Translations under genes and position numbers: made by a program
Assembly: GCA_964579795.1 (NCBI GenBank)
Contig: CAZOHM010000012.1
Span: 244 to 64,243, forward strand
Origin: an uncultured Lachnospiraceae bacterium
GTDB taxonomy: Bacteria > Bacillota > Clostridia > Lachnospirales > Lachnospiraceae
DNA: 64,000 nucleotides
Direction: 5' to 3'
In this document: positions 5,419-39,630 of the stretch, piece by piece
Numbering within the stretch: the stretch's first letter is position 1
Layout of the letters: every line of letters begins with the position of its first letter
The notes under the pieces: generated by a model
Database searches by the model: none
The model's input: the letters and a program-made list of their open reading frames with translations, nothing else
What the model was told of the DNA's origin: nothing

Positions 5419-7434
5419 TTAATTTTCTGTATCAGCATTCCCATCTGATTTAACACTTTCACCTGGTTCAACGCTTTCATCTAATTCAACGCTCTCACCT
5501 GGTTCAACACTTTCGCCGGGTTCAACGCTCTCACCTGACTCAACGCTTTCATCTGATTCAACATCTGGCTCGGGTATTCCCTTTGCTTTACGGAATATTT
5601 TCATGAACTCCTTACCTGTAATGCTTTCTCTTTCCAGCAAATACTCGGCAAGTTCATTCATCAGTTCACGGTTTTCCACCAAAAGTCTCTTTGCTTCCTC
5701 ATACGATTTGGAAAGTACTTTCATAATTTCCTCATCAACTTGTGCTGCTGTCAAATCACTGCATTCCAGCACTGTTCTGCCACTCAGATATTTATCTTCA
5801 ACAGATTCAAGCTTTACAAGACCAAATCGGTCAGACATACCATACTGTGTAATCATGGATCTTGCCAGTCCGGTTGCCTGCTCAATATCATTAGCTGCTC
5901 CCGTTGTAATGGAATTGAAAACAATTTCCTCAGAAGCACGACCTGCAAGTGCTGTTACAATTCGCTCCTCAAGCTCCACTTTTGAACGCAGATGCTTTTC
6001 TTCATCAGGTACATACCACGCATAACCAAGAGCACCCATCGTTCTCGGTACAATTGTAATCTTTTGAATTGGATCTGTATTTTTCTGGAGCGCACTCGCC
6101 AGAGCATGACCGATTTCATGATAAGAAACAATCTTCTTTTCTTCCTTGCTCATAATACGGTCTTTCTTTTCCTTACCCATCATAACAACTTCGATTGCTT
6201 CCAGCATATCCTTCTGGTTGACAAATTCCCTGCCGTTCTTGACCGCGTTGATGGCAGCTTCATTTACCATATTCGCAAGATCGGATCCAACTGCTCCTGC
6301 TGTTGCAAGTGCAACCTCTTCCAAATCCACCGTATCATCCAGATGAACATCTTTGGAATGAACACGCAGCGTTTCCTTTCTTCCTTTCAAATCCGGCTTG
6401 TCAACAATAATCCTTCGGTCAAAACGACCTGGTCTGAGTAGCGCCTTATCAAGAATTTCCGGTCTGTTTGTAGCAGCAAGTATCAAAAGACCTTTTGAAG
6501 CGTCAAATCCATCCATCTCAGAAAGAAGCTGGTTCAATGTCTGCTCACGTTCATCATTTCCACCACCGTATCTGGAATCACGACTCTTTCCGATGGCATC
6601 TATTTCATCTATAAAAATAATACATGGTGCATTTTTCTGTGCTTCCTTAAATAAATCACGAACTCTTGAAGCGCCTACACCGACATACATCTCTACAAAA
6701 TCAGAACCTGCCAGAGAAAAGAACGGTACATGTGCTTCTCCTGCAACAGCTCTTGCCAGAAGCGTTTTACCTGTTCCGGGAGGTCCTACAAGCAATGCTC
6801 CCTTTGGCAGCTTTGCTCCGATTTTAACATATTTGCCCGGATTATGAAGAAAATCGACTACCTCTTGCAGCGATTCCTTTGCTTCATCCTGTCCTGCAAC
6901 ATCCTTAAATGTGATACCTGTCTCTTTTTGTACATAAACCTTTGCATTGCTTTTTCCAACGCCCATCATACCGCCGCCCTTGGACATCCGGCGCATAACA
7001 AAGCTCAAAATAATCCATACAAGTACAATCGGAAGCACATATGACACTAATATAGAAATAATCATAGCAGAGGAATCAGTCTCCTCCTGCTCGAATTTCA
7101 CTCCTGCCTTTAACAGTCTGTCCGGAAGCTCCGAATCATCAACTCTAACTGTATAATAAGTCATGGAAACATATGCGTTTGGCTGTTCCTTTGGCGTAAT
7201 TGTTATTTTATCCGAACCAATCTTTACACTATCAATTGCTCCACTATCAATCTTTTCGATAAACTCGTCATAGGAAATCTTTTGATTTGAAGCATTTGAC
7301 AAAAAGCTCCTCATGTAAGAAAGCAGCAAAAGCATAACAATCGATGCTACAAGCAGGATAAGCAGTGTTTGTTTATTCTGTGGCTGATTTCCTTTATTAT
7401 TCTGATTATTGTCAGAATTTTTGTTATTGTCCAT
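5419..7434 (-). CDS. ftsH: ATP-dependent zinc metalloprotease FtsH
   Basis: Walker A GPPGTGKT, zinc motif HEIGHA, two N-terminal TM segments, GGAGAG RBS. The C-terminus carries an acidic hexapeptide-repeat tail. Confidence 0.95.
5449..5574 (-). repeat. About seven tandem 18-bp units encoding (P/S/L)(G/D)ESVE hexapeptides in the ftsH 3' end
   Basis: Read directly: units such as ttcaacgctctcacctgg recur in frame. The protein tail reads [36 protein letters not shown]. Confidence 0.9.
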
Positions 7435-7487
7435 ATTTCTCTCCGTTTTCTATATTCTCATCATTCTTATGGATTTTGTTCTATATT

Positions 7488-7516
7488 ATTATAGAGATTG
7501 TTTTGGGATAAATCAA
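7488..7516 (-). promoter_or_regulatory. Candidate sigma-A promoter of ftsH (TTGATT-17 nt-TATAAT on minus strand)
   Basis: The hexamers read on the minus strand at 7516-7511 and 7493-7488, with a 17-nt spacer, about 55 nt upstream of the start codon. Confidence 0.55.
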
Positions 7517-7528
7517 TATACTCTTTAT

Positions 7529-7569
7529 GAAAAAACAGGTGCAATTCTAAACCTGTTCTAAATTTTTTC
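7529..7569. terminator. Orphan bidirectional terminator-like hairpin between divergent ftsH and pyrG
   Basis: AACAGGT-N10-ACCTGTT, flanked by an A-run on one side and a T-run on the other. No upstream gene ends here on either strand. Confidence 0.5.
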
Positions 7570-7622
7570 TTTATTTCTGTTTTTTTTTTCATTACTGACT
7601 GGATTTTTAAATGCGAATCTAC

Positions 7623-7699
7623 TATAATAGGAACGTCTATAGAGAAAAAGCTAACACGGTGCAAGGGCGCGCCGATTAATTATTTGCGCCCGAAGGCGC
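7623..7699 (+). promoter_or_regulatory. pyrG leader: TATAAT -10 box, then a GC-rich segment with two mutually exclusive hairpins
   Basis: TATAAT at 7623-7628, with no convincing -35 box. GGGCGC(7665-7670)/GCGCCC(7686-7691) competes with GCGCC-CGAA-GGCGC (7686-7699). This is the only GC-rich patch in an AT-rich spacer. Confidence 0.35.
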
Positions 7700-7715
7700 A
7701 GTTGTGGAGGTTTTT

Positions 7716-9320
7716 ATGTCAGTAAAATATGTATTTGTTACAGGTGGTGTTGTATCAGGATTAGGCAAAGGTATCACTGCCGCTTCTCTCGGAAGACTGT
7801 TGAAAGCCCGTGGCTACAAAGTGACCATGCAGAAATTTGATCCTTATATTAATATTGATCCGGGCACTATGAATCCGATTCAGCATGGTGAAGTATTTGT
7901 GACTGAAGACGGTACAGAAACAGATTTGGACCTTGGACATTATGAGAGATTTATAGACGAAAATCTTGATAAAAACTCAAATGTCACTACCGGAAAAATT
8001 TACTGGTCTGTTCTTCAAAAGGAAAGACACGGCGATTTTGGTGGTGGTACAGTTCAAGTCATTCCTCATATCACAAATGAAATTAAAAGCCGATTCTATC
8101 GCAATACAACAGATGAAGATATACACATTGCCATTATTGAAGTGGGTGGAACTGTGGGCGACATTGAAAGTCAGCCATTTTTAGAGGCCATCCGTCAATT
8201 CCAGCATAATGTTGGCAGAGATAATGCCATTCTCATACATGTTACTCTAATTCCTTATCTGCGTGCCTCCCAGGAAATGAAGACCAAGCCAACTCAGGCA
8301 AGTGTCAAAGAGCTGCAGGGAATGGGAATTCAGCCGGATATTATCGTTTGCCGGAGTGAGCATTCTCTTGATAAACAAATAAAAGACAAAATTGCGTTGT
8401 TTTGTAATGTTCCTGCTAATCATGTACTACAAAATCTTGATGTGGAATATTTATATGAGGCGCCGCTTGCAATGGAAAACGAACATCTTGCACAGGTTGC
8501 CTGTGAGTGTCTGCATCTGGAATGTCCGGTACCAAACCTTGCTGACTGGCAGGCAATGGTAAACAATTTGAAAACACCGACAAAAGAAGTCAGCATTTCA
8601 CTTGTCGGAAAATATATTCAGCTTCACGACGCATATATCAGCGTTGTAGAAGCACTCAAACACGGTGGAATTAACCAGCATGCAGTTGTGCATATTAACT
8701 GGATTGATTCCGGAACAGTAACTGTAGAAAATGCATCCACTCTGCTTGGTCATTCAGATGGAATTATTGTACCAGGTGGTTTTGGTGAACGTGGTACCGA
8801 TGGAATGATTCAAGCAATTACCTATGCAAGAGAGCATAACATTCCTTTTCTCGGACTATGTCTTGGTATGCAGCTTTCAATCGTAGAGTTTGCAAGAAAT
8901 GTTATAGGCTATCAAGATGCCCACAGTATAGAATTAAACCCGGCAACTACACATCCTGTCATTGCATTGATGCCGGATCAGAACGGTATTGTCGATCTCG
9001 GCGGTACACTCCGACTTGGCTCCTATCCGTGCGTGCTTGATAAAAAATCAAAGGCTTATGCGCTTTATAAACAGGATACCATCCATGAGCGTCACAGACA
9101 TCGTTATGAAGTAAATAACGAATACCGCGATGCACTTACTTCGCATGGTATGCTCCTGTCAGGTATTTCACCTGATGGTCGAATTGTAGAAATGTGTGAG
9201 CTTCCAGATCACCCATTTTTCGTTGCTACACAGGGCCATCCGGAGCTGAAATCCAGACCAAACAGACCACATCCTCTGTTTAACGGATTTATAGAGGCAG
9301 CATTAAAAGCCAAAAAATAG
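7716..9320 (+). CDS. pyrG: CTP synthase
   Basis: [20 protein letters not shown]-terminus and GATase motif GLCLGMQ. ATG at 7716 lies 5 nt after GGAGG; the track ORF begins at an upstream GTG (7704). Confidence 0.95.
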
Positions 9321-32464: not shown

Positions 32465-33808
32465 ATGCAAACATTTAATCCATTTGAAGAAAAACCGTTA
32501 CCAATAGAAAAAATATTTATGGACTGGGATACCATTTATCCCCGTCCATATAATAAAGAAACAACAAATCCTTATACCAAATGTCGGATTGTTCTGATGA
32601 ATGGTACAGAGTTTGAAGCGCAATGGTTCAGCCGAAACTTTTCCAGACACTGCTGTAATGATGATTTGCGTCGTGAACTGGCTCTTGTACGACGAAGTGA
32701 ACAGCAGCAGCAAAAACGAATCAGCTGTCTGAAACCAAAAAATGAATCTATTCTGGAGCATACAATTACGTATGAACAGCTTGCTGTTGATCTGACTGCA
32801 GTACTTGCAAAGCAGGAAACAGACTGTAATGTCAAAAACGCCTTGAATTTTGCATTACTTGAGGATTTTGATCATCTGTACCGATATTCTAATCTTCTCG
32901 ATTATGAATACAATATCTGTCCTGAAAAGCTTGTCGGAGGCTATACAGAAATTACTCCGGCAAGACCAACCATATCTGAACATCGCTATCCTCTTGACAG
33001 TATCTTTCAACATATTAACAACCACACCGCCTCAACAAAAACAAAACTGAACATTAATACAATTACAGCTGCAGAGCAGCAAACAATGAATTACTATATG
33101 AATGTTGCTGCCTTCTATGACCGCTCTGATCTCGGGCGCAGATTATATCAGGAAATCGGACTTATTGAAGAAGAACATGTAAGTCAGTATGAAAGCTTAA
33201 AGGATCCAAATGCAACCTGGCTGGAAGACCTGTTAATGCATGAATATACTGAATGTTATCTATATTTCTCCTGCATGCAGTCAGAATGCGATTCATATAT
33301 TAAACGGATTTGGGAACAATGTCTCCTGCAGGAAATTACTCATCTTCATATGGCAGCCTCTCTGCTGCAAAAATATGAGCAAAAGGATTGGATGCAGGTC
33401 ATTCCAAATGGGGATTTCCCTGAACTTTTAGTACTTCATCCAAACATTGAATATGTAAGAGAAATCATAAGAACTACAACTGGAAACACACAGCTGCTGG
33501 AGCATGTCGTACCTTTGGCTGAGCTTTCTCCTTCCTCATACTTTTATGAGTATCAGAATATCATGAATCACAATCTCAACAGTGTTGCAAGCCACAATGT
33601 AATTACTCAGCGTATATCAAACCGCGGGAATGACTATCGATTTGAAACAGCACCGAATCCTATACCGGAGCTGCAAAACCGTCATTGTGATAACACGAGT
33701 CTTGCAAGAATTAGTCAGGCAACCCCTTCAAGTACACAAATTTGCGGTACTTCTGAGGGCTGCTGCAAATGCACAGTCAAAACAGATCATACAATTGTTG
33801 CCTTCTAG
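32465..33808 (+). CDS. Hypothetical protein with ferritin-like / di-iron-type ExxH motifs and a C-terminal Cys cluster
   Basis: 447 aa. Helical segments carry LLEDFDH, IEEEHVSQYE and LQEITHLH. C-terminus is QICGTSEGCCKC. Has a GTGAGG RBS. Confidence 0.45.
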   Translation: MQTFNPFEEKPLPIEKIFMDWDTIYPRPYNKETTNPYTKCRIVLMNGTEFEAQWFSRNFSRHCCNDDLRRELALVRRSEQQQQKRISCLKPKNESILEHTITYEQLAVDLTAVLAKQETDCNVKNALNFALLEDFDHLYRYSNLLDYEYNICPEKLVGGYTEITPARPTISEHRYPLDSIFQHINNHTASTKTKLNINTITAAEQQTMNYYMNVAAFYDRSDLGRRLYQEIGLIEEEHVSQYESLKDPNATWLEDLLMHEYTECYLYFSCMQSECDSYIKRIWEQCLLQEITHLHMAASLLQKYEQKDWMQVIPNGDFPELLVLHPNIEYVREIIRTTTGNTQLLEHVVPLAELSPSSYFYEYQNIMNHNLNSVASHNVITQRISNRGNDYRFETAPNPIPELQNRHCDNTSLARISQATPSSTQICGTSEGCCKCTVKTDHTIVAF

Positions 33809-34757: not shown

Positions 34758-34835
34758 TTGACATTTCTGTTTGAAAAGATTACACTTCAAATATTCATAT
34801 GAAAAGGCTTTGAAAAGAAAAGTAAATAATGAAAT

Positions 34836-35120
34836 ATGTCACAGAGAGCTTCGCATGGTGAAAAGAAGCACAGAAAGCATTATTGAAAATGGTCTTGGAG
34901 CTGCGTACCGACTGCATTGTACATTCAATGTCATGCACAGGCTGCGAAGGGAACGCCCTTTATCGCGTCAGAGTATCGAATAGAGACAGCTGGCAGCTAT
35001 TCTGTACTTGTAGAGGTTCATGTTGTGAAATATGAATAAAATAAGGTGGTAACACGAAGCTTTAGCTTTCGTCCTTTATCTGTAGTTAATCTGCAGATAT
35101 CGGATGGAAGCTTTTTTTAT
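34836..35120 (+). promoter_or_regulatory. T-box leader (tRNA-sensing riboswitch) with intrinsic terminator, probable Met specifier
   Basis: Stem I elements AGAGAG (34843) and GGTGAAA (34857). T-box sequence AAGGTGGTAACACG (35043-35056). Terminator AGCTTTCGTCC (35064-35074) pairs with GGATGGAAGCT (35102-35112), then T7. An AUG followed by a purine lies in the candidate specifier loop at 34889-34892. Confidence 0.8.
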
Positions 35121-35152: not shown

Positions 35153-36067
35153 ATGCCAATTAAAATTCAAAGTGATTTACCAGCAAAAGAAATACTCGAA
35201 AACGAGAATATTTTTGTAATGGACGAAACCCGTGCATTATCGCAGAACATTCGTCCGCTTCAGCTCTGTATTCTGAACCTGATGCCCTTAAAGGAGGATG
35301 CAGAATTACATTTATTGCGGGCTTTTTCAAACACGCCGTTACAGGTTGAGCTTACATTTATGAATACAGGCAGCCATATATCCAGTCATACGTCCATAGC
35401 GCATTTAAACAAATTTTATAATACGTTTGAAGAGCTTCAAGACAGAAAGTTTGATGGGATGATTATTACCGGTACACCGGTGGAACATCTGGAATATGAG
35501 GAAGTAGATTATTGGCCGGAATTATGCAGCATTATGGAATGGAGCAAAACGCATGTAACATCCACGCTTCATATATGCTGGGGTGCTCAGGCAGGTGTAT
35601 ACTACCACTTTGGTCTGAAAAAAAAGCCGCTGAAAGAAAAACTCTTTGGCATCTATGCTCATAAGGTTTTTCAAAGAAAAGAACCACTTGTAAGAGGTTT
35701 CGATGACTATTTTATGGCTCCGCACAGTCGTTATACAGAAATAACCGCAGAAGATATCCATGCCTGCCAGGAGCTGACTGTGCTGGCGGAATCAGACGAA
35801 GCCGGTGTATTCCTTGCTACGGCACATGAAGGAAAGCAAATATTTGTTATGGGCCATCCGGAATACGACCGATATTCTCTTCACAATGAGTATATAAGAG
35901 ACAAGAATAAGGGATTATCCATTCAAATCCCTAAAAACTACTACCCAAATGATGACGTCACAAAAAAACCGGTGATGCAATGGCGTTCTCATTGTAACGG
36001 TCTGTATACAAACTGGCTGAATTACTATGTTTATCAGGCAACCCCATACGATATTATGAAAATTTAG
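35153..36067 (+). CDS. metA: Homoserine O-acyltransferase (MetA family)
   Basis: [23 protein letters not shown] ... LNLMP ... HICWGAQA motifs characteristic of MetA. AGAGGTG RBS. Confidence 0.92.
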
Positions 36068-36069
36068 CA

Positions 36070-36119
36070 CAAACAACGCGTTGTTTATACATAATTTGAA
36101 GCAAACAACGCGTTGTTTG
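36070..36119. repeat. Two tandem copies of the perfect palindrome CAAACAACGCGTTGTTT(G)
   Basis: Exact 17-nt copies at 36070-36086 and 36102-36118, 32 bp centre to centre. They lie between metA and the convergent PolC-like ORFs. Confidence 0.9.
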
Positions 36120-36372
36120 TTGCAAATATTTTGAATACATGATAAAAGACTTGAAAAATCTCTTCACACAATTCTCTATCTGACAGTTGACGATATTGAG
36201 GTTTACCTTGTTTTTTTTGTAATGTTGAGTCAGAATAAGCGCTGTGCACATCACAAATAAGCAGCCGGTGACTTTTCCCTTCTCCTGTCATATTAATAAT
36301 CATGGAACAGCTCATCGGCCGCTTCAGATTTTCCACCTGTAGCTCGTATCTTGGATTTTTAGTTACCAGCAT
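36085..36372 (-). CDS. Possible small ORF resembling the PolC C-terminal tail (weak)
   Basis: 95-aa ORF overlapping the upstream stop by 14 nt, with no clear RBS. NMTGEGKSHRLLI and QLSDRELCEEI ... NNALF loosely recall the PolC GLG/HhH and LSKEDL ... NQLSLF end. Its 3' end runs through the palindromes. Confidence 0.3.
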   Translation of the reverse strand: MLVTKNPRYELQVENLKRPMSCSMIINMTGEGKSHRLLICDVHSAYSDSTLQKKQGKPQYRQLSDRELCEEIFQVFYHVFKIFATNNALFASNYV

Positions 36373-37291
36373 TAATTATACTTTGCTCACTATTCCTCAT
36401 CGCAGGAAGTACACGTACAATTGCATTGGCCAGTGAACTGACATAGGCAACCTTCTTATAGGGAGCCAGCTGTTCGGCGGTCAAACCATAAGTCTCACAG
36501 ACTTCCTCCACGTTATCCATATGATGCAGCTTGCATGAACGTATTATTTCCATCAAGTCATATGCCTTCTGCTTCTCCATTCCATAGTCTCCAATCAGTT
36601 CATGATATATTTCCTCGCGATATCGATATCCGCAATTCTGTTCCAACGCACATTCTCCGGCATAGGACAGACAGGTCTCTCTATGATTATGAAGCTGTCC
36701 ATATCTCTCCCAATAGTTTTCTGAGGATATGAACGTTTCCTTGGACATAAATTCTATTCTGGGGTGACGATTTCTATTCGGACCAAATATATAATCAATA
36801 TCCAGATCAAACCCATCTGCTAATATCATCGCTCCGCAGTCGGGACAGTTTTTCACCGGCAAGTCCGCACCAAACACATTCTTTGGTCCCAGTGCAAAAA
36901 AACCACAGTGTTGGCAGTAGTAATGAGCCTGCAGTGGATTTGGACCGTCTGGATTCATCAAATAAAGCAGATAAGACCCCGAAGTCACACCTGAAGGAAG
37001 CATTGTATATTTTCCTTTTAGCGAATGCCTGCCAAGAACACCAAAAGCGCAGAACTCATCCAGATTTTTTAAATCTCGTGCGATCTCCAGTTCCTCCCGA
37101 TATCTTTCTTTCACTAAATAAGGCATATTCTTTGGATATAAAATCTCCATCTGTTTTTCACAAATCGCTTGAATTGTCCTTAACATTTCTTTTCTATTTT
37201 CCTTATCCCTTCTATATTTTTCTTCGTATGCCCTTCTGAGTTTGTAGCTTTTATTGTCACTATTACTTACTTCTGTTATGGATTCATCCAT
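36359..37291 (-). CDS. PolC-derived mini-protein: PHP zinc-finger module plus thumb-proximal helices, no catalytic core
   Basis: 310 aa from ATG 37291 (7 nt after GGAGG). Collinear matches, from my memory of Bacillus PolC, include LVKERYREELEIA; GSYLLYLMNPDGPNPLQAHYYCQHCGFF..GADLPVKNCPDCG; DGFDLDIDYIFGPNRNRHPRIEF; YREEIYHELIGDYGMEKQKAYDLMEIIRS; and YKKVAYVSSLANAIVRV. Confidence 0.6.
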   Translation of the reverse strand: MDESITEVSNSDNKSYKLRRAYEEKYRRDKENRKEMLRTIQAICEKQMEILYPKNMPYLVKERYREELEIARDLKNLDEFCAFGVLGRHSLKGKYTMLPSGVTSGSYLLYLMNPDGPNPLQAHYYCQHCGFFALGPKNVFGADLPVKNCPDCGAMILADGFDLDIDYIFGPNRNRHPRIEFMSKETFISSENYWERYGQLHNHRETCLSYAGECALEQNCGYRYREEIYHELIGDYGMEKQKAYDLMEIIRSCKLHHMDNVEEVCETYGLTAEQLAPYKKVAYVSSLANAIVRVLPAMRNSEQSIINAGN

Positions 37292-37415
37292 TCTCATTCC
37301 TCCTCGATTATTTGATTCGTAGTGTTTTTTCTTTATATACAACTACTTTACAACTAAATTCTAACCTATCAACATGACACCATATGTCCATGTTATCATT
37401 TTTTTACAATTACAA

Positions 37416-37459
37416 AAGCTGCCTACCAGAATGCATTTTCTGCATCTGACAGACAGCTT
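37416..37459 (-). terminator. Rho-independent terminator of the GH3 operon
   Basis: Long imperfect hairpin AAGCTG..CAGATGCA-loop-TGCATTCTG..CAGCTT, followed on the minus strand by TTTGTAATT. Confidence 0.7.
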
Positions 37460-37485: not shown

Positions 37486-39630
37486 TTATAGCTTTAATTT
37501 AAGTTCCAGTGGCTTAACTCCTCCTAATGTTACACTCACTTCATCTGGCTGACTTATGCCAACGTATAATTTAAATTCATCACTGTCAAGAATATACTTA
37601 CCGTCATTATTTACTGACAGTAATGCTTTTGACGGTATTTTCAGGAAGAATTGTCTTTCCTCACCGGCTTCTAATGCAATACGCTTAAACGCACAAAGAC
37701 TATGGTTTTTGACAGCATATTTGGATTTCAGATTTTTTATATAGATCTGTACTACTTCCTCTATCCGGCATGCACCTGTGTTTTTGATTTTTCCTGTCAC
37801 TTCTATCTGTCCCTGATAAAGCTGGTCAGAATTCTTTGCAAGTTCTCTGACTTGTTCCTCATCCATAAGCTTTGCGTCTGACAAAGAAGCTTTTCCATAT
37901 GTCAGTCCAAACCCAAACGGATATTGTGCCTTTCCTGCTATATATCGATAGGTTCTTCCTGCCATACTGTAATTCTCGAATGCAGGAAGTTCCTCCAATG
38001 AATTATAGAAGGTTATCGGCAGCTTTCCAGATGGAGATACATTCCCAAACAGTATATTGGCAACTGCTTTTCCTCCGTCTGCGCCTGGATACCATGCCTG
38101 CAGAATTGCTTTTACGTTATTGCTTTCTTTTGCAAGCGACAAGTCCATTGCGCTGCCTGTCATATTGACAAGAATCACCGGTTTCCCTATCTCAGCTATT
38201 GCTCGAAGAAGCTTCATCTGAGATTTTGGAAGCTTCAGGTCAGCCTTATCTCCGGATGCATAGCTGTTTCCGGTATCGCCTTCCTCACCCTCCAGTGTCT
38301 CATTCAGACCAAGGCAAAGCACAACCACATCTGACTGTTTTGTAATATACGAGGCTTCAGAAATACGATCATCCGGCCATGCCAGATGTTCAACACGGTC
38401 CTTGTACAAATGAGAACCTTCTGAATATAGTATGCGAACATCCTCGTCCGCTTCCTCCTGTATTCCCTCCAATACTGTCTTATATCTTGAAGAAGTTCCA
38501 TGATAATTTCCAATCAGAGCTTCTCGGCTATTTGCGTTTGGACCAATCACCGCAATTGTCTTAAGCTTCTTCTTATTAAGCGGCAGAATCCCATCATTTT
38601 TCAAAAGAACGATTGCCTTTTCTGCGACTTCCAGTGCAAGTTTTCGATGAGGCAGACTTTCTACCTCGTCATAAGAAATTTTATCATATTCGTTTGAATC
38701 AAACATTCCAAGCATAAATCTCGTTGTAAACAGTCTGACGGCTGCCATCGTAATCTGATCTTCTGTCACAAGGTTTTCCTGATATGCTTTTAACATGTGA
38801 AGATATGTATTTCCACAGTTCAGATCACAGCCTTTTTCCAATGCAAGTGCAGCAGATTCTGCCGGTGTTTTTGTTATCATATGGTGCTCATGAAAATCTC
38901 TGATTGCCCAGCAGTCTGACACATAGTGACCCTCGAACTTCCAATCCTTACGCAGAATATCATCCATCAATGTCTTACTTGCACAGCACGGTTCTCCGTT
39001 TGTACGATTGTACGCACCCATGACAGCTTCTACTTTACCTTCTTTTACACATGCCTCGAATGCAGGTAAATATGTTTCAAATAAGTCCTTCTTGCTTACT
39101 TGTGCATCAAACTCATGTCTGACTGCCTCTGGTCCAGAGTGAACTGCAAAATGCTTTGCGCATGATGCTGTTTTTAGATAATCGCCATCACCCTGCAGAC
39201 CTTTCACAAATGCAACACCGAGTCTGCTCGTCAGATACGGATCCTCACCATAGGTTTCATGACCTCTTCCCCATCTGGGATCACGGAAAATATTTACATT
39301 TGGTGACCACATTGTAAGTCCCTTATAAATATCTCTGTCATTTTCTGATACTTCCGCATTATATTTGGCCCTGGCCTCTGTAGAAACAACATCTGCAACT
39401 TTCTGAAGTATTTCCTCATCAAATACTGCAGCCAGTCCTATTGCTTGTGGAAATACTGTGGCTGTTCCGCTTCTTGCTACACCGTGAAGACCCTCGTTCC
39501 ACCAGTTGTATGCGGGTACACCCAGCCGTTCAATTGCCGATGCGTCATATTTTAATTGAGAAGCTTTCTCTTCCAGTGTCATTCTGGCTACAAGCTCTTC
39601 AGCTCTTTTTTTGGCTTCTTTTCTCTCCAT
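37486..39630 (-). CDS. Glycoside hydrolase family 3 beta-glucosidase/beta-xylosidase
   Basis: 714 aa. MTLEEKASQL ... NWWNEGLHGV ... FRDPRWGRGHETYGEDP ... SDCWAI motifs of GH3, plus a C-terminal Fn3-like domain. Confidence 0.9.
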   Translation of the reverse strand: MERKEAKKRAEELVARMTLEEKASQLKYDASAIERLGVPAYNWWNEGLHGVARSGTATVFPQAIGLAAVFDEEILQKVADVVSTEARAKYNAEVSENDRDIYKGLTMWSPNVNIFRDPRWGRGHETYGEDPYLTSRLGVAFVKGLQGDGDYLKTASCAKHFAVHSGPEAVRHEFDAQVSKKDLFETYLPAFEACVKEGKVEAVMGAYNRTNGEPCCASKTLMDDILRKDWKFEGHYVSDCWAIRDFHEHHMITKTPAESAALALEKGCDLNCGNTYLHMLKAYQENLVTEDQITMAAVRLFTTRFMLGMFDSNEYDKISYDEVESLPHRKLALEVAEKAIVLLKNDGILPLNKKKLKTIAVIGPNANSREALIGNYHGTSSRYKTVLEGIQEEADEDVRILYSEGSHLYKDRVEHLAWPDDRISEASYITKQSDVVVLCLGLNETLEGEEGDTGNSYASGDKADLKLPKSQMKLLRAIAEIGKPVILVNMTGSAMDLSLAKESNNVKAILQAWYPGADGGKAVANILFGNVSPSGKLPITFYNSLEELPAFENYSMAGRTYRYIAGKAQYPFGFGLTYGKASLSDAKLMDEEQVRELAKNSDQLYQGQIEVTGKIKNTGACRIEEVVQIYIKNLKSKYAVKNHSLCAFKRIALEAGEERQFFLKIPSKALLSVNNDGKYILDSDEFKLYVGISQPDEVSVTLGGVKPLELKLKL

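Follow-up and report, generated by a model that had tools for sequence, protein, structure and literature searches.

A reduced, catalytically inactive PolC-palm protein in an uncultured Lachnospiraceae bacterium and the uncharacterized family to which it belongs

The C-family replicative polymerases of bacteria are regarded as essential enzymes that fall into only four groups, DnaE1, DnaE2, DnaE3 and PolC (PMC12926913, PMC3919608), and residues D972 and D974 of Enterococcus faecium PolC are its polymerase catalytic residues (PMC12592400). In the Y family, a catalytically inactive polymerase, ImuB, serves as the hub of the ImuA-ImuB-DnaE2 mutasome (PMC12926913, PMC3919608). WYL regulators are repressors that respond to ligands or nucleic acids and co-localize with phage-defense systems (PMC9122601, PMC9122589). 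We analyzed a 64,000-nucleotide stretch of DNA from an uncultured Lachnospiraceae bacterium (assembly GCA_964579795.1, contig CAZOHM010000012.1, positions 244–64,243; hereafter the window) and studied two overlapping open reading frames (ORFs) within it, ORF-A of 310 aa and ORF-B of 95 aa. We found ORF-A to be homologous to the palm and base of the fingers of PolC, to have lost the polymerase active site and to belong to a family of short PolC relatives. We consider it probable that ORF-A is a transcriptionally independent gene for a minimal, noncatalytic member of this uncharacterized, PolC-core-derived family and acts by binding.

Homology of ORF-A to PolC and the state of its active site

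An earlier note on the window, made by eye from its letters, had described the two ORFs as a compact PolC-like pair; their coordinates proved correct, and their strand, which the note did not give, is the minus strand (Table 1). For ORF-A the proposed similarity is far beyond chance. The NCBIfam polC model TIGR01405 matched it at E = 2.4e-13, with residues 39–180 corresponding to model positions 597–740 of 1211, and in the Protein Data Bank (PDB) the PolC of Geobacillus (3f2b) matched residues 44–182 at E = 3.5e-10 and that of Enterococcus (9qpc) matched at E = 1.5e-9. ORF-A scored 48.7 bits against TIGR01405 and 44.5 bits against NF001688, below the cut-offs of 1043.45 and 873. The Pfam model DNA_pol3_alpha (PF07733) gave no match at E ≤ 1, its gathering threshold being 23.9 bits; two relatives, P0003 and P0004, passed that threshold narrowly (25.5 and 24.2 bits) and relatives bearing a PHP domain scored around 100 bits. 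The AlphaFold2 (AF2) model of ORF-A, computed from a 46-sequence alignment, had a mean predicted local distance difference test (pLDDT) of 87.6 and a predicted template modeling score (pTM) of 0.82, with a sole disordered stretch at residues 201–220. In Foldseek its best match was PolC 3f2c (E = 4.9e-9), and PolC was the only significant match in the PDB.

A hidden Markov model (HMM) built from 45 short family members, with ORF-A left out, matched the protein twice. The first match, at HMM positions 5–162 (166.9 bits, E = 2.6e-52), is the N-module; the second, pairing residues ~215–304 with HMM positions 320–418 (32.6 bits, E = 1.5e-11), is the C-module. Direct alignment of the C-module to residues 787–871 of 3f2b was weak. 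The C-terminal segments that the note had picked out (R-E-E-I, AY-x-LME, K-x-x-Y and A-x-A-x-V) are nevertheless homologous, as the profile that recovers them aligns contiguously with PolC. HMM positions 163–319 found no match in ORF-A, and a search of the other reading frames for remnants of the core or of a PolC C terminus found none, so the 157 missing positions have truly been deleted rather than frameshifted. The linker in their place measures ~25–35 residues, fewer than the ~45 that the note had counted.

The absence of the PHP domain, the exonuclease and much of the polymerase core was confirmed. Neither Pfam nor NCBIfam gave a PHP or exonuclease match in ORF-A, and the protein begins ~30 residues before the palm; also missing are the remaining palm, the thumb, the distal fingers and the clamp-binding and HhH regions. 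Family proteins begin at a residue matching approximately residues 30–34 of ORF-A, and AF2 predicts a helix at residues 11–51. The zinc ribbon conforms to the PolC-specific Cys4 pattern, with C126, C129, C149 and C152 invariant in both alignments studied (A1 and A2). The note had assigned this ribbon to the PHP module. It lies instead inside PF07733, that is, in an insertion of the Pol III alpha palm/nucleotidyltransferase (NTase) domain, and in PHP-carrying relatives the Pfam PHP domain takes up the first ~100–165 matched residues, separate from the ribbon in DNA_pol3_alpha.

We mapped the three catalytic aspartate columns (PDIDLN and KLDILG) onto all retrieved sequences. ORF-A has Arg178, Glu180 and a gap, the third aspartate lying in the deleted segment. 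The D, D, D pattern was complete in 6 of 6 full-length PolCs, in 16 of 36 proteins of 600–1,100 aa (mostly PHP-bearing) and in 3 of ~125 proteins of up to 600 aa. Judged by its sequence, ORF-A cannot be a polymerase or an NTase, because two carboxylates are replaced and the deletion that removed the third also took the strand bearing it, the thumb and most of the fingers.

The inactivated PolC-palm family and its neighborhoods

An exhaustive HMMER search with ORF-A against 1.84 billion representative proteins returned 890 matches at E ≤ 1e-3. The best of them are proteins of 430–450 aa, with E-values down to 2e-28, that start where the homology of ORF-A starts; true PolCs (~1,300–1,500 aa) rank lower, and a second group, of roughly 650–880 aa, carries a PHP domain in front. 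The ~440-aa family has no curated model and was defined in the present analysis. Against the PDB, the family profile matched PolC alone (E = 1.7e-53), with profile positions 3–422 aligning contiguously to residues 409–877 of the 1041-residue 3f2b chain, so the family comprises the PolC palm, thumb and proximal fingers. Typical members have no PHP domain, exonuclease, OB fold, clamp-binding region or HhH.

The family is under purifying selection even though almost all members lack the catalytic aspartates. Nei-Gojobori dN/dS ratios among full-length members were 0.15–0.31 in four unsaturated pairs and 0.06–0.25 in more distant pairs. Selection on proteins with a dead active site indicates that the family does something other than DNA polymerization. 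Members are labeled "hypothetical protein" or "PolC-type DNA polymerase III family protein" at NCBI, and the named hosts are Hespellia stercorisuis, Blautia obeum and Lachnospiraceae metagenome-assembled genomes (MAGs); examples are WP_073113367.1 of H. stercorisuis (P0004), MBR1741275.1 (P0003) and WP_427743670.1 of B. obeum. Our literature search found no account of truncated or inactivated PolC-like proteins. The family does not appear in two systematic surveys of bacterial C-family polymerases (PMC3919608, PMC12926913), and the 2026 survey discarded truncated sequences.

The searches also returned a second truncated PolC-like group of 600–1,100 aa (P0035, P0043, P0049 and ~30 others), consisting of PHP, palm, thumb and proximal fingers and having no exonuclease, OB fold or any of the C-terminal clamp/HhH region (e.g., L153:4104-6311 and L148:4393-7083). 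One PHP-bearing relative has an N-terminal XRE helix-turn-helix (HTH), and P0047, which has no PHP match, carries Sel1 repeats. Phage genomes were considered as the main habitat of the family and rejected: IMG/VR held just three loci, two of them full-length PolC, BFVD gave weak Pol III alpha matches and PHROGs none.

We examined 64 loci encoding short family members, most of them from human-gut and rumen metagenomes. The commonest neighbor is a regulator of ~320 aa with winged-HTH (wHTH), WYL and WCX parts (PADLOC WYL E = 1.8e-16; Pfam WYL and WCX in a longer member). By approximate count, it lies within four genes in 30 of the 64 loci and 15 of the 29 clusters formed at 70% identity, and several clusters without it have too little upstream sequence to judge. 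Two arrangements recur. In one, the WYL gene is divergent from the family gene with ~100–200 nt between them; in the other, found in two separate clusters, the order is codirectional, from the WYL gene through a PvuRts1I-like/SRA type IV restriction enzyme to the family gene. Operons of the latter kind, in which the modified-cytosine-dependent enzyme joins a PvuRts1I-like N-domain to an SRA domain, occur in L124–L126 and L132 (e.g., L132:6048-9266). The last two operon genes overlap by 4 nt in L132, and a protein of ~170 aa without a Pfam match is encoded 3' of the family gene in L124–L126 and not in L132.

In five loci belonging to one sequence cluster, a retron reverse transcriptase (RT; PADLOC RT_Ec107-like, E = 6e-118) lies directly upstream of, and codirectional with, a family gene of 428 aa. 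The RT occupies 6797–7849 and the family gene 8016–9302 in L130, L134 and L137, and the same pair stands at other coordinates in L135 and L136. The combination may be an undescribed pairing of a retron with an effector. Some 520 nt of noncoding DNA 5' of the RT in L134 and L137 could hold a retron noncoding RNA.

Further neighbors of family genes include macro-domain, Schlafen/AlbA_2, XRE and polymorphic-toxin genes. Some members are fused at the C terminus to DnaA domain IV, the DnaA-box-binding HTH (Pfam Bac_DnaA_C, E about 1e-15), as in P0007/P0173 (L173:7001-8596) and L114:1125-2729; the fusion gene of L173 adjoins a DUF87 ATPase and an Endonuclease_NS_2/YezG-like toxin-immunity pair. Directly 3' of the 357-aa P0148, a 478-aa protein (L002:5166-6602, also in L003 and L004) has no Pfam match and a weak match to HEC-07, a PADLOC model of candidate defense proteins (E = 1.9e-7).

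The WYL regulators and defense-like neighbors suggest that the family has a DNA-directed role in the response to stress or phage, which would usually be exerted under control of the adjacent WYL regulator in defense-like islands. Full-length relatives may occupy primer-template DNA or origins without extension, or be a decoy or sensor for PolC-targeting factors. A bolder proposal, which we regard as speculative and rather unlikely as it stands, is that the family is a WYL-controlled pseudo-polymerase effector or sensor in immunity or replication control. Its members might cap primer ends, block origins (a role that the DnaA domain IV fusions bring to mind) or decoy phage factors that target PolC; ORF-A and the other mini forms would mark the zinc-ribbon half-palm as the minimal working unit, and the members adjacent to a retron RT could be a new type of retron effector.

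Function or decay of ORF-A

The N-module of ORF-A has diverged to ~35% identity with its nearest relatives, the full-length P0003, P0004 and P0012, and retains 28 of the 29 positions conserved at ≥70% among 92 family N-modules and all 16 at the 85% level, above the family median. Read from the alignment, there is no sign of relaxed constraint on the N-module, which favors function. The two-module architecture is not confined to ORF-A. Two other members seen on several contigs, P0066 (286 aa) and P0085 (299 aa), have the same boundaries, roughly HMM positions 4–160 plus 329–420, giving ~160 N-module positions, a linker of ~25 residues and ~90 C-module positions. Their N-modules are nearest to another subfamily, with an "AYYYC" ribbon and 39–47% identity, and the reductions are therefore independent of that in ORF-A. 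Other members show intermediate deletions at positions 176–235 or 256–320, and as far as the alignments tell, the center of the family is repeatedly dispensable and both ends are not. The earlier note had suggested a search for mini-ORFs with the same boundaries in related genomes; P0066 and P0085 are such forms, in a subfamily other than that of ORF-A.

ORF-A begins, as the note had read it, at an ATG 7 nt from an AGGAGG Shine-Dalgarno (SD) sequence. A second ATG two codons upstream is spaced just 1 nt from the SD, so the start giving 310 aa is the likely one. The hairpin behind the GH3 gene is likely the terminator of that gene and would separate ORF-A as its own transcription unit. On the other side, AAACAACGCGTTGTTT, a 16-nt palindrome, occurs in two exact copies 32 nt apart within 36061–36127, where 0.01 would be expected by chance. 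The copies are part of a 26-nt direct repeat, are absent from the rest of the window and can fold singly or jointly, the joint stem having ~20 bp. Because of its place between ORF-A/B and the convergent metA, the hairpin is likely a bidirectional terminator; the pair of palindromes could instead be an operator pair or a REP-like element. An Rfam scan of the region gave merely chance hairpin (miRNA model) matches on the terminator palindrome. Flanked by terminator-like hairpins and headed by a strong ribosome-binding site, ORF-A and ORF-B are predicted to be a transcription unit of their own. Promoter-like sites are no more numerous in the region than in shuffled sequence. The G+C content and codon usage of the ORF-A region are those of the surrounding chromosome, and the codon-usage score of ORF-A, 0.203, falls inside the range of the window's genes.

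We infer that the zinc-ribbon half-palm acts as a binding module rather than a catalyst; what it binds might be the end of a nucleic acid, a nucleotide, or a protein of the replisome or of a phage. The copy in the window may have lost the usual partners of the family or never had them. ORF-A stands alone between metabolic operons with those partners missing, and its present role is therefore the least certain step.

The principal rival holds that ORF-A is a decaying remnant, left by a recent in-frame internal deletion in a ~440-aa family gene, with ORF-B as noise. The ~157 missing profile positions, the absence of WYL and the other usual partners and the restriction of ORF-A to one lineage fit such a history, and the degenerate C-module could mean decay: it ranks one to five from the bottom among 86 members in consensus retention (37–62% kept), with RKG changed to RSC and FPRAH to SSLAN relative to the family consensus tREDfF...AF.i.E.vRKG...YlFPRAH. 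Several further points weigh against a working gene that acts by binding. The binding mechanism is itself pure inference. No relative of ORF-A was found in 185,579 GTDB representative genomes, and its public copies, which several studies recovered from metagenomes of bioreactors and wastewater, show no variation. Expression of ORF-A was not seen, but three metatranscriptomes from a study that contains this DNA yielded contigs for none of the genes around it either and so say little about ORF-A in particular. The window has neither a WYL regulator nor a restriction enzyme, retron or other defense gene near ORF-A. PADLOC (PADLOC-DB 2.0, E ≤ 0.01) matched neither ORF-A, P0003, P0004 nor the family gene of L134, and PHROGs matched none of them, so that the link of the family to defense comes from its neighborhoods only; the survey of those neighborhoods used a crude ORF caller and covered the best 80 of the 506 loci that two peptide patterns retrieved, so its frequencies are approximate.

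Decay does not readily explain an N-module that keeps 97% of the conserved positions at just 35% identity to any known relative, nor the lack of frameshift remnants in other frames, the strong SD and own terminators, the confident and compact AF2 model, the independent recurrence of the N+C architecture in P0066 and P0085 on several contigs, or the identity of the sequence in bioreactor and wastewater metagenomes of five or more studies. Metagenomes of bioreactors, wastewater and manure from ~10 studies of 2019–2025 (runs X1–X20) contain the locus at 100% identity. Word-indexed protein searches with ORF-A and with ORF-B yielded nothing beyond a near-identical copy of each, both on a 1.3-kb Logan contig that departs from the window at two nucleotides, one of them in metA and the other in ORF-B (K54 to T). 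In a genome search anchored on metA, the best MetA, from a MAG of the Lachnospiraceae, was 76% identical, and synteny was shared with none of the genomes found. The host is a widespread Lachnospiraceae lineage without a close representative among the GTDB species genomes. On balance we judge a functional ORF-A about twice as probable as a relic, and the specific history of a recent deletion from a ~440-aa gene to be possible but unlikely. Between the relic and the domesticated PolC fragment that the note had offered as alternatives, the latter, noncatalytic and with constraint on the N-module kept, lies nearer the truth, and its proposed role as a regulator or a decoy for PolC partners may hold; the relic is the less probable alternative, with the divergent C-module speaking for it.

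Another proposal, that ORF-A and ORF-B form a two-gene module, toxin-antitoxin-like or a protein with its partner or chaperone, with translation coupled by their overlap, appears improbable. The 14-nt overlap, correctly noted before, and the shared transcription unit are what such a module would have; the frame of ORF-B outscores its five alternatives in codon usage, and single-sequence AF2 folds it into three strands and one helix (overall pLDDT 62.9), 40 of its residues reaching pLDDT 70–90. No homolog of ORF-B was found by phmmer among all ORFs of the 170 fetched loci, including those downstream of family genes, nor any match in PADLOC or PHROGs, and its AF2 model has no structural neighbor in Foldseek. 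It has no clear SD, its codon-usage score of 0.051 lies below all training genes of the window (minimum 0.075), and its last 12 codons and stop belong to the terminator hairpin, of which they are the 5' arm and loop. The resemblance to the GLG/HhH end of PolC that had been suggested for it was not borne out by BLASTP against PolC (E = 1.1), by NCBIfam or Pfam, or by the family HMM, which matches in no frame; of the two ORFs, ORF-A alone is significant in such a comparison, which the note had proposed as a check. Whether ORF-B is a gene at all we put at about even chances.

That ORF-A is a collapsed paralog of the organism's own housekeeping polC, as the note had it, is very improbable. PolC is indeed the only solved structure that ORF-A resembles. 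It fits the short family far better (E = 2e-28 for single members, 167 bits for the HMM) than true PolC (E about 1e-13), however, and shares the family-specific start point and C-terminal end; being closer to the short family, it will have inherited the losses of the PHP, exonuclease and C-terminal regions from the ancestor of the family rather than suffered them locally, and is a reduced member of a preexisting, widespread ~440-aa family under purifying selection. There is next to no chance that ORF-A has remained an enzyme, whether a nucleotidyltransferase or a polymerase of minimal size, working through the GS motif and Glu180. It keeps SGVTSGS and, in the second catalytic column, an acidic residue, but it has lost two of the three catalytic carboxylates, the strand of the third, the thumb and most of the fingers, and the RKG motif of the fingers has turned into RSC.

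The genes around the probable ORF-A unit are ordinary metabolic ones: a MarR regulator, a PNPOx-like gene, metA and a GH3/ABC sugar operon. The T-box leader 5' of metA is complete, so metA is probably controlled by tRNA charging. A search of the whole 64-kb window for a WYL homolog found none. A 447-aa ORF with a Cys-rich tail precedes the MarR/PNPOx pair on its upstream side.

Table 1. Positions of ORF-A, its parts and the surrounding features in the window
Feature	Position	Strand	Basis or remark
ORF-A, 310 aa	36359-37291	-	ORF list and start context; reduced, catalytically inactive derivative of the PolC palm
N-terminal charged helical extension, aa 1-33	37193-37291	-	Absent from most family members
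N-module, aa 34-187	36731-37192	-	First half of Pol III alpha palm/NTase fold, GS motif SGVTSGS and PolC-type zinc ribbon; pLDDT >90
Cys4 zinc ribbon H123-Y-Y-C126-x-x-C129...C149-P-x-C152	36836-36925	-	Aligns with the PolC ribbon in 3f2b and 9qpc
Degenerate catalytic strand P-R-I-E-F-M	36746-36763	-	PolC counterpart P-D-I-D-L-N (pairwise alignments)
Linker, aa 188-214	36650-36730	-	Replaces ~157 profile positions (second half of palm and thumb); AF2 pLDDT <50 at aa 201-220
C-module, aa 215-304	36380-36649	-	Divergent helical base-of-fingers module, REEIY...AYDLMEIIR...YVSSLAN
ORF-B, 95 aa, orphan ORF	36085-36372	-	Overlaps ORF-A stop by 14 nt; gene status uncertain
Shine-Dalgarno AGGAGG (CCTCCT on forward strand)	37299-37304	-	Read from sequence; 7 nt 5' of ORF-A ATG at 37291
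Promoter-like TTGATA-16-TAAAGT upstream of ORF-A	37345-37372	-	Scan; consensus match only
Hairpin and U-rich tail 3' of GH3 gene stop	37416-37459	-	RNA fold -27.2 kcal/mol, z = -3.4; 19-bp stem
Long hairpin from two AAACAACGCGTTGTTT copies	36067-36123	.	RNA fold -31.5 kcal/mol, z = -5.5; between convergent metA and ORF-A/B
metA	35153-36067	+	Convergent with ORF-A/B
T-box leader	34801-35079	+	Rfam RF00230, 104.9 bits (gathering score 93); complete; directly 5' of metA
GH3 glycosidase gene	37486-39630	-	Upstream of ORF-A, with ABC sugar-transport genes
447-aa ORF	32465-33808	+	No Pfam match

Comparison with known systems

The locus exposes a large, conserved and undescribed set of catalytically dead PolC derivatives in the Lachnospiraceae, a dominant gut family. 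If a role in defense or stress-related replication were true, a pseudo-polymerase would be added to the defense or replication-control repertoire. There could also be a bearing on how antibiotics directed at PolC are interpreted in gut commensals, though none of the present results shows that a drug is bound. ORF-A itself is an extreme, lineage-restricted minimal form, whose main use is to indicate the parts that the fold cannot do without.

PolC is the sole significant match of ORF-A in sequence or structure, and the two are homologous, in the same order, over the first half-palm, with its GS motif and PolC-specific Cys4 ribbon, and the helical base of the fingers. They differ in size (~1,450 aa against 310 aa) and in the parts that ORF-A lacks, namely the N-terminal domain, OB fold, PHP, DnaQ exonuclease, second half-palm, thumb, distal fingers, clamp-binding region and HhH, and the catalytic Asp residues of PolC are replaced (Arg, Glu) or deleted. 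Closest to ORF-A are the Lachnospiraceae proteins of 430–450 aa, at 35–36% identity over the N-module, which share its start point, zinc ribbon, conserved residues, C-module and catalytic loss. Unlike them, ORF-A is without ~157 central positions, is extended by 33 aa at the N terminus, has a degenerate C-module and has no WYL regulator beside it.

The comparison with WYL defense modules of the BrxR/CapW type (PMC9122601) concerns the family more than ORF-A, which has no WYL or defense neighbor. About half or more of the 440-aa family genes lie beside a wHTH-WYL-WCX regulator, which is divergent or heads an operon with the PvuRts1I-like enzyme, in the manner known from defense islands (PMC9122601). 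The PolC-like protein itself matches no known defense family. With ImuB the likeness is one of principle only. ImuB belongs to the Y rather than the C family, has the whole polymerase fold, a clamp-binding motif and defined partners, and bears no sequence relationship to ORF-A; in both cases, if our reading of ORF-A holds, a conserved protein derived from a polymerase has lost its catalytic carboxylates and works by binding.

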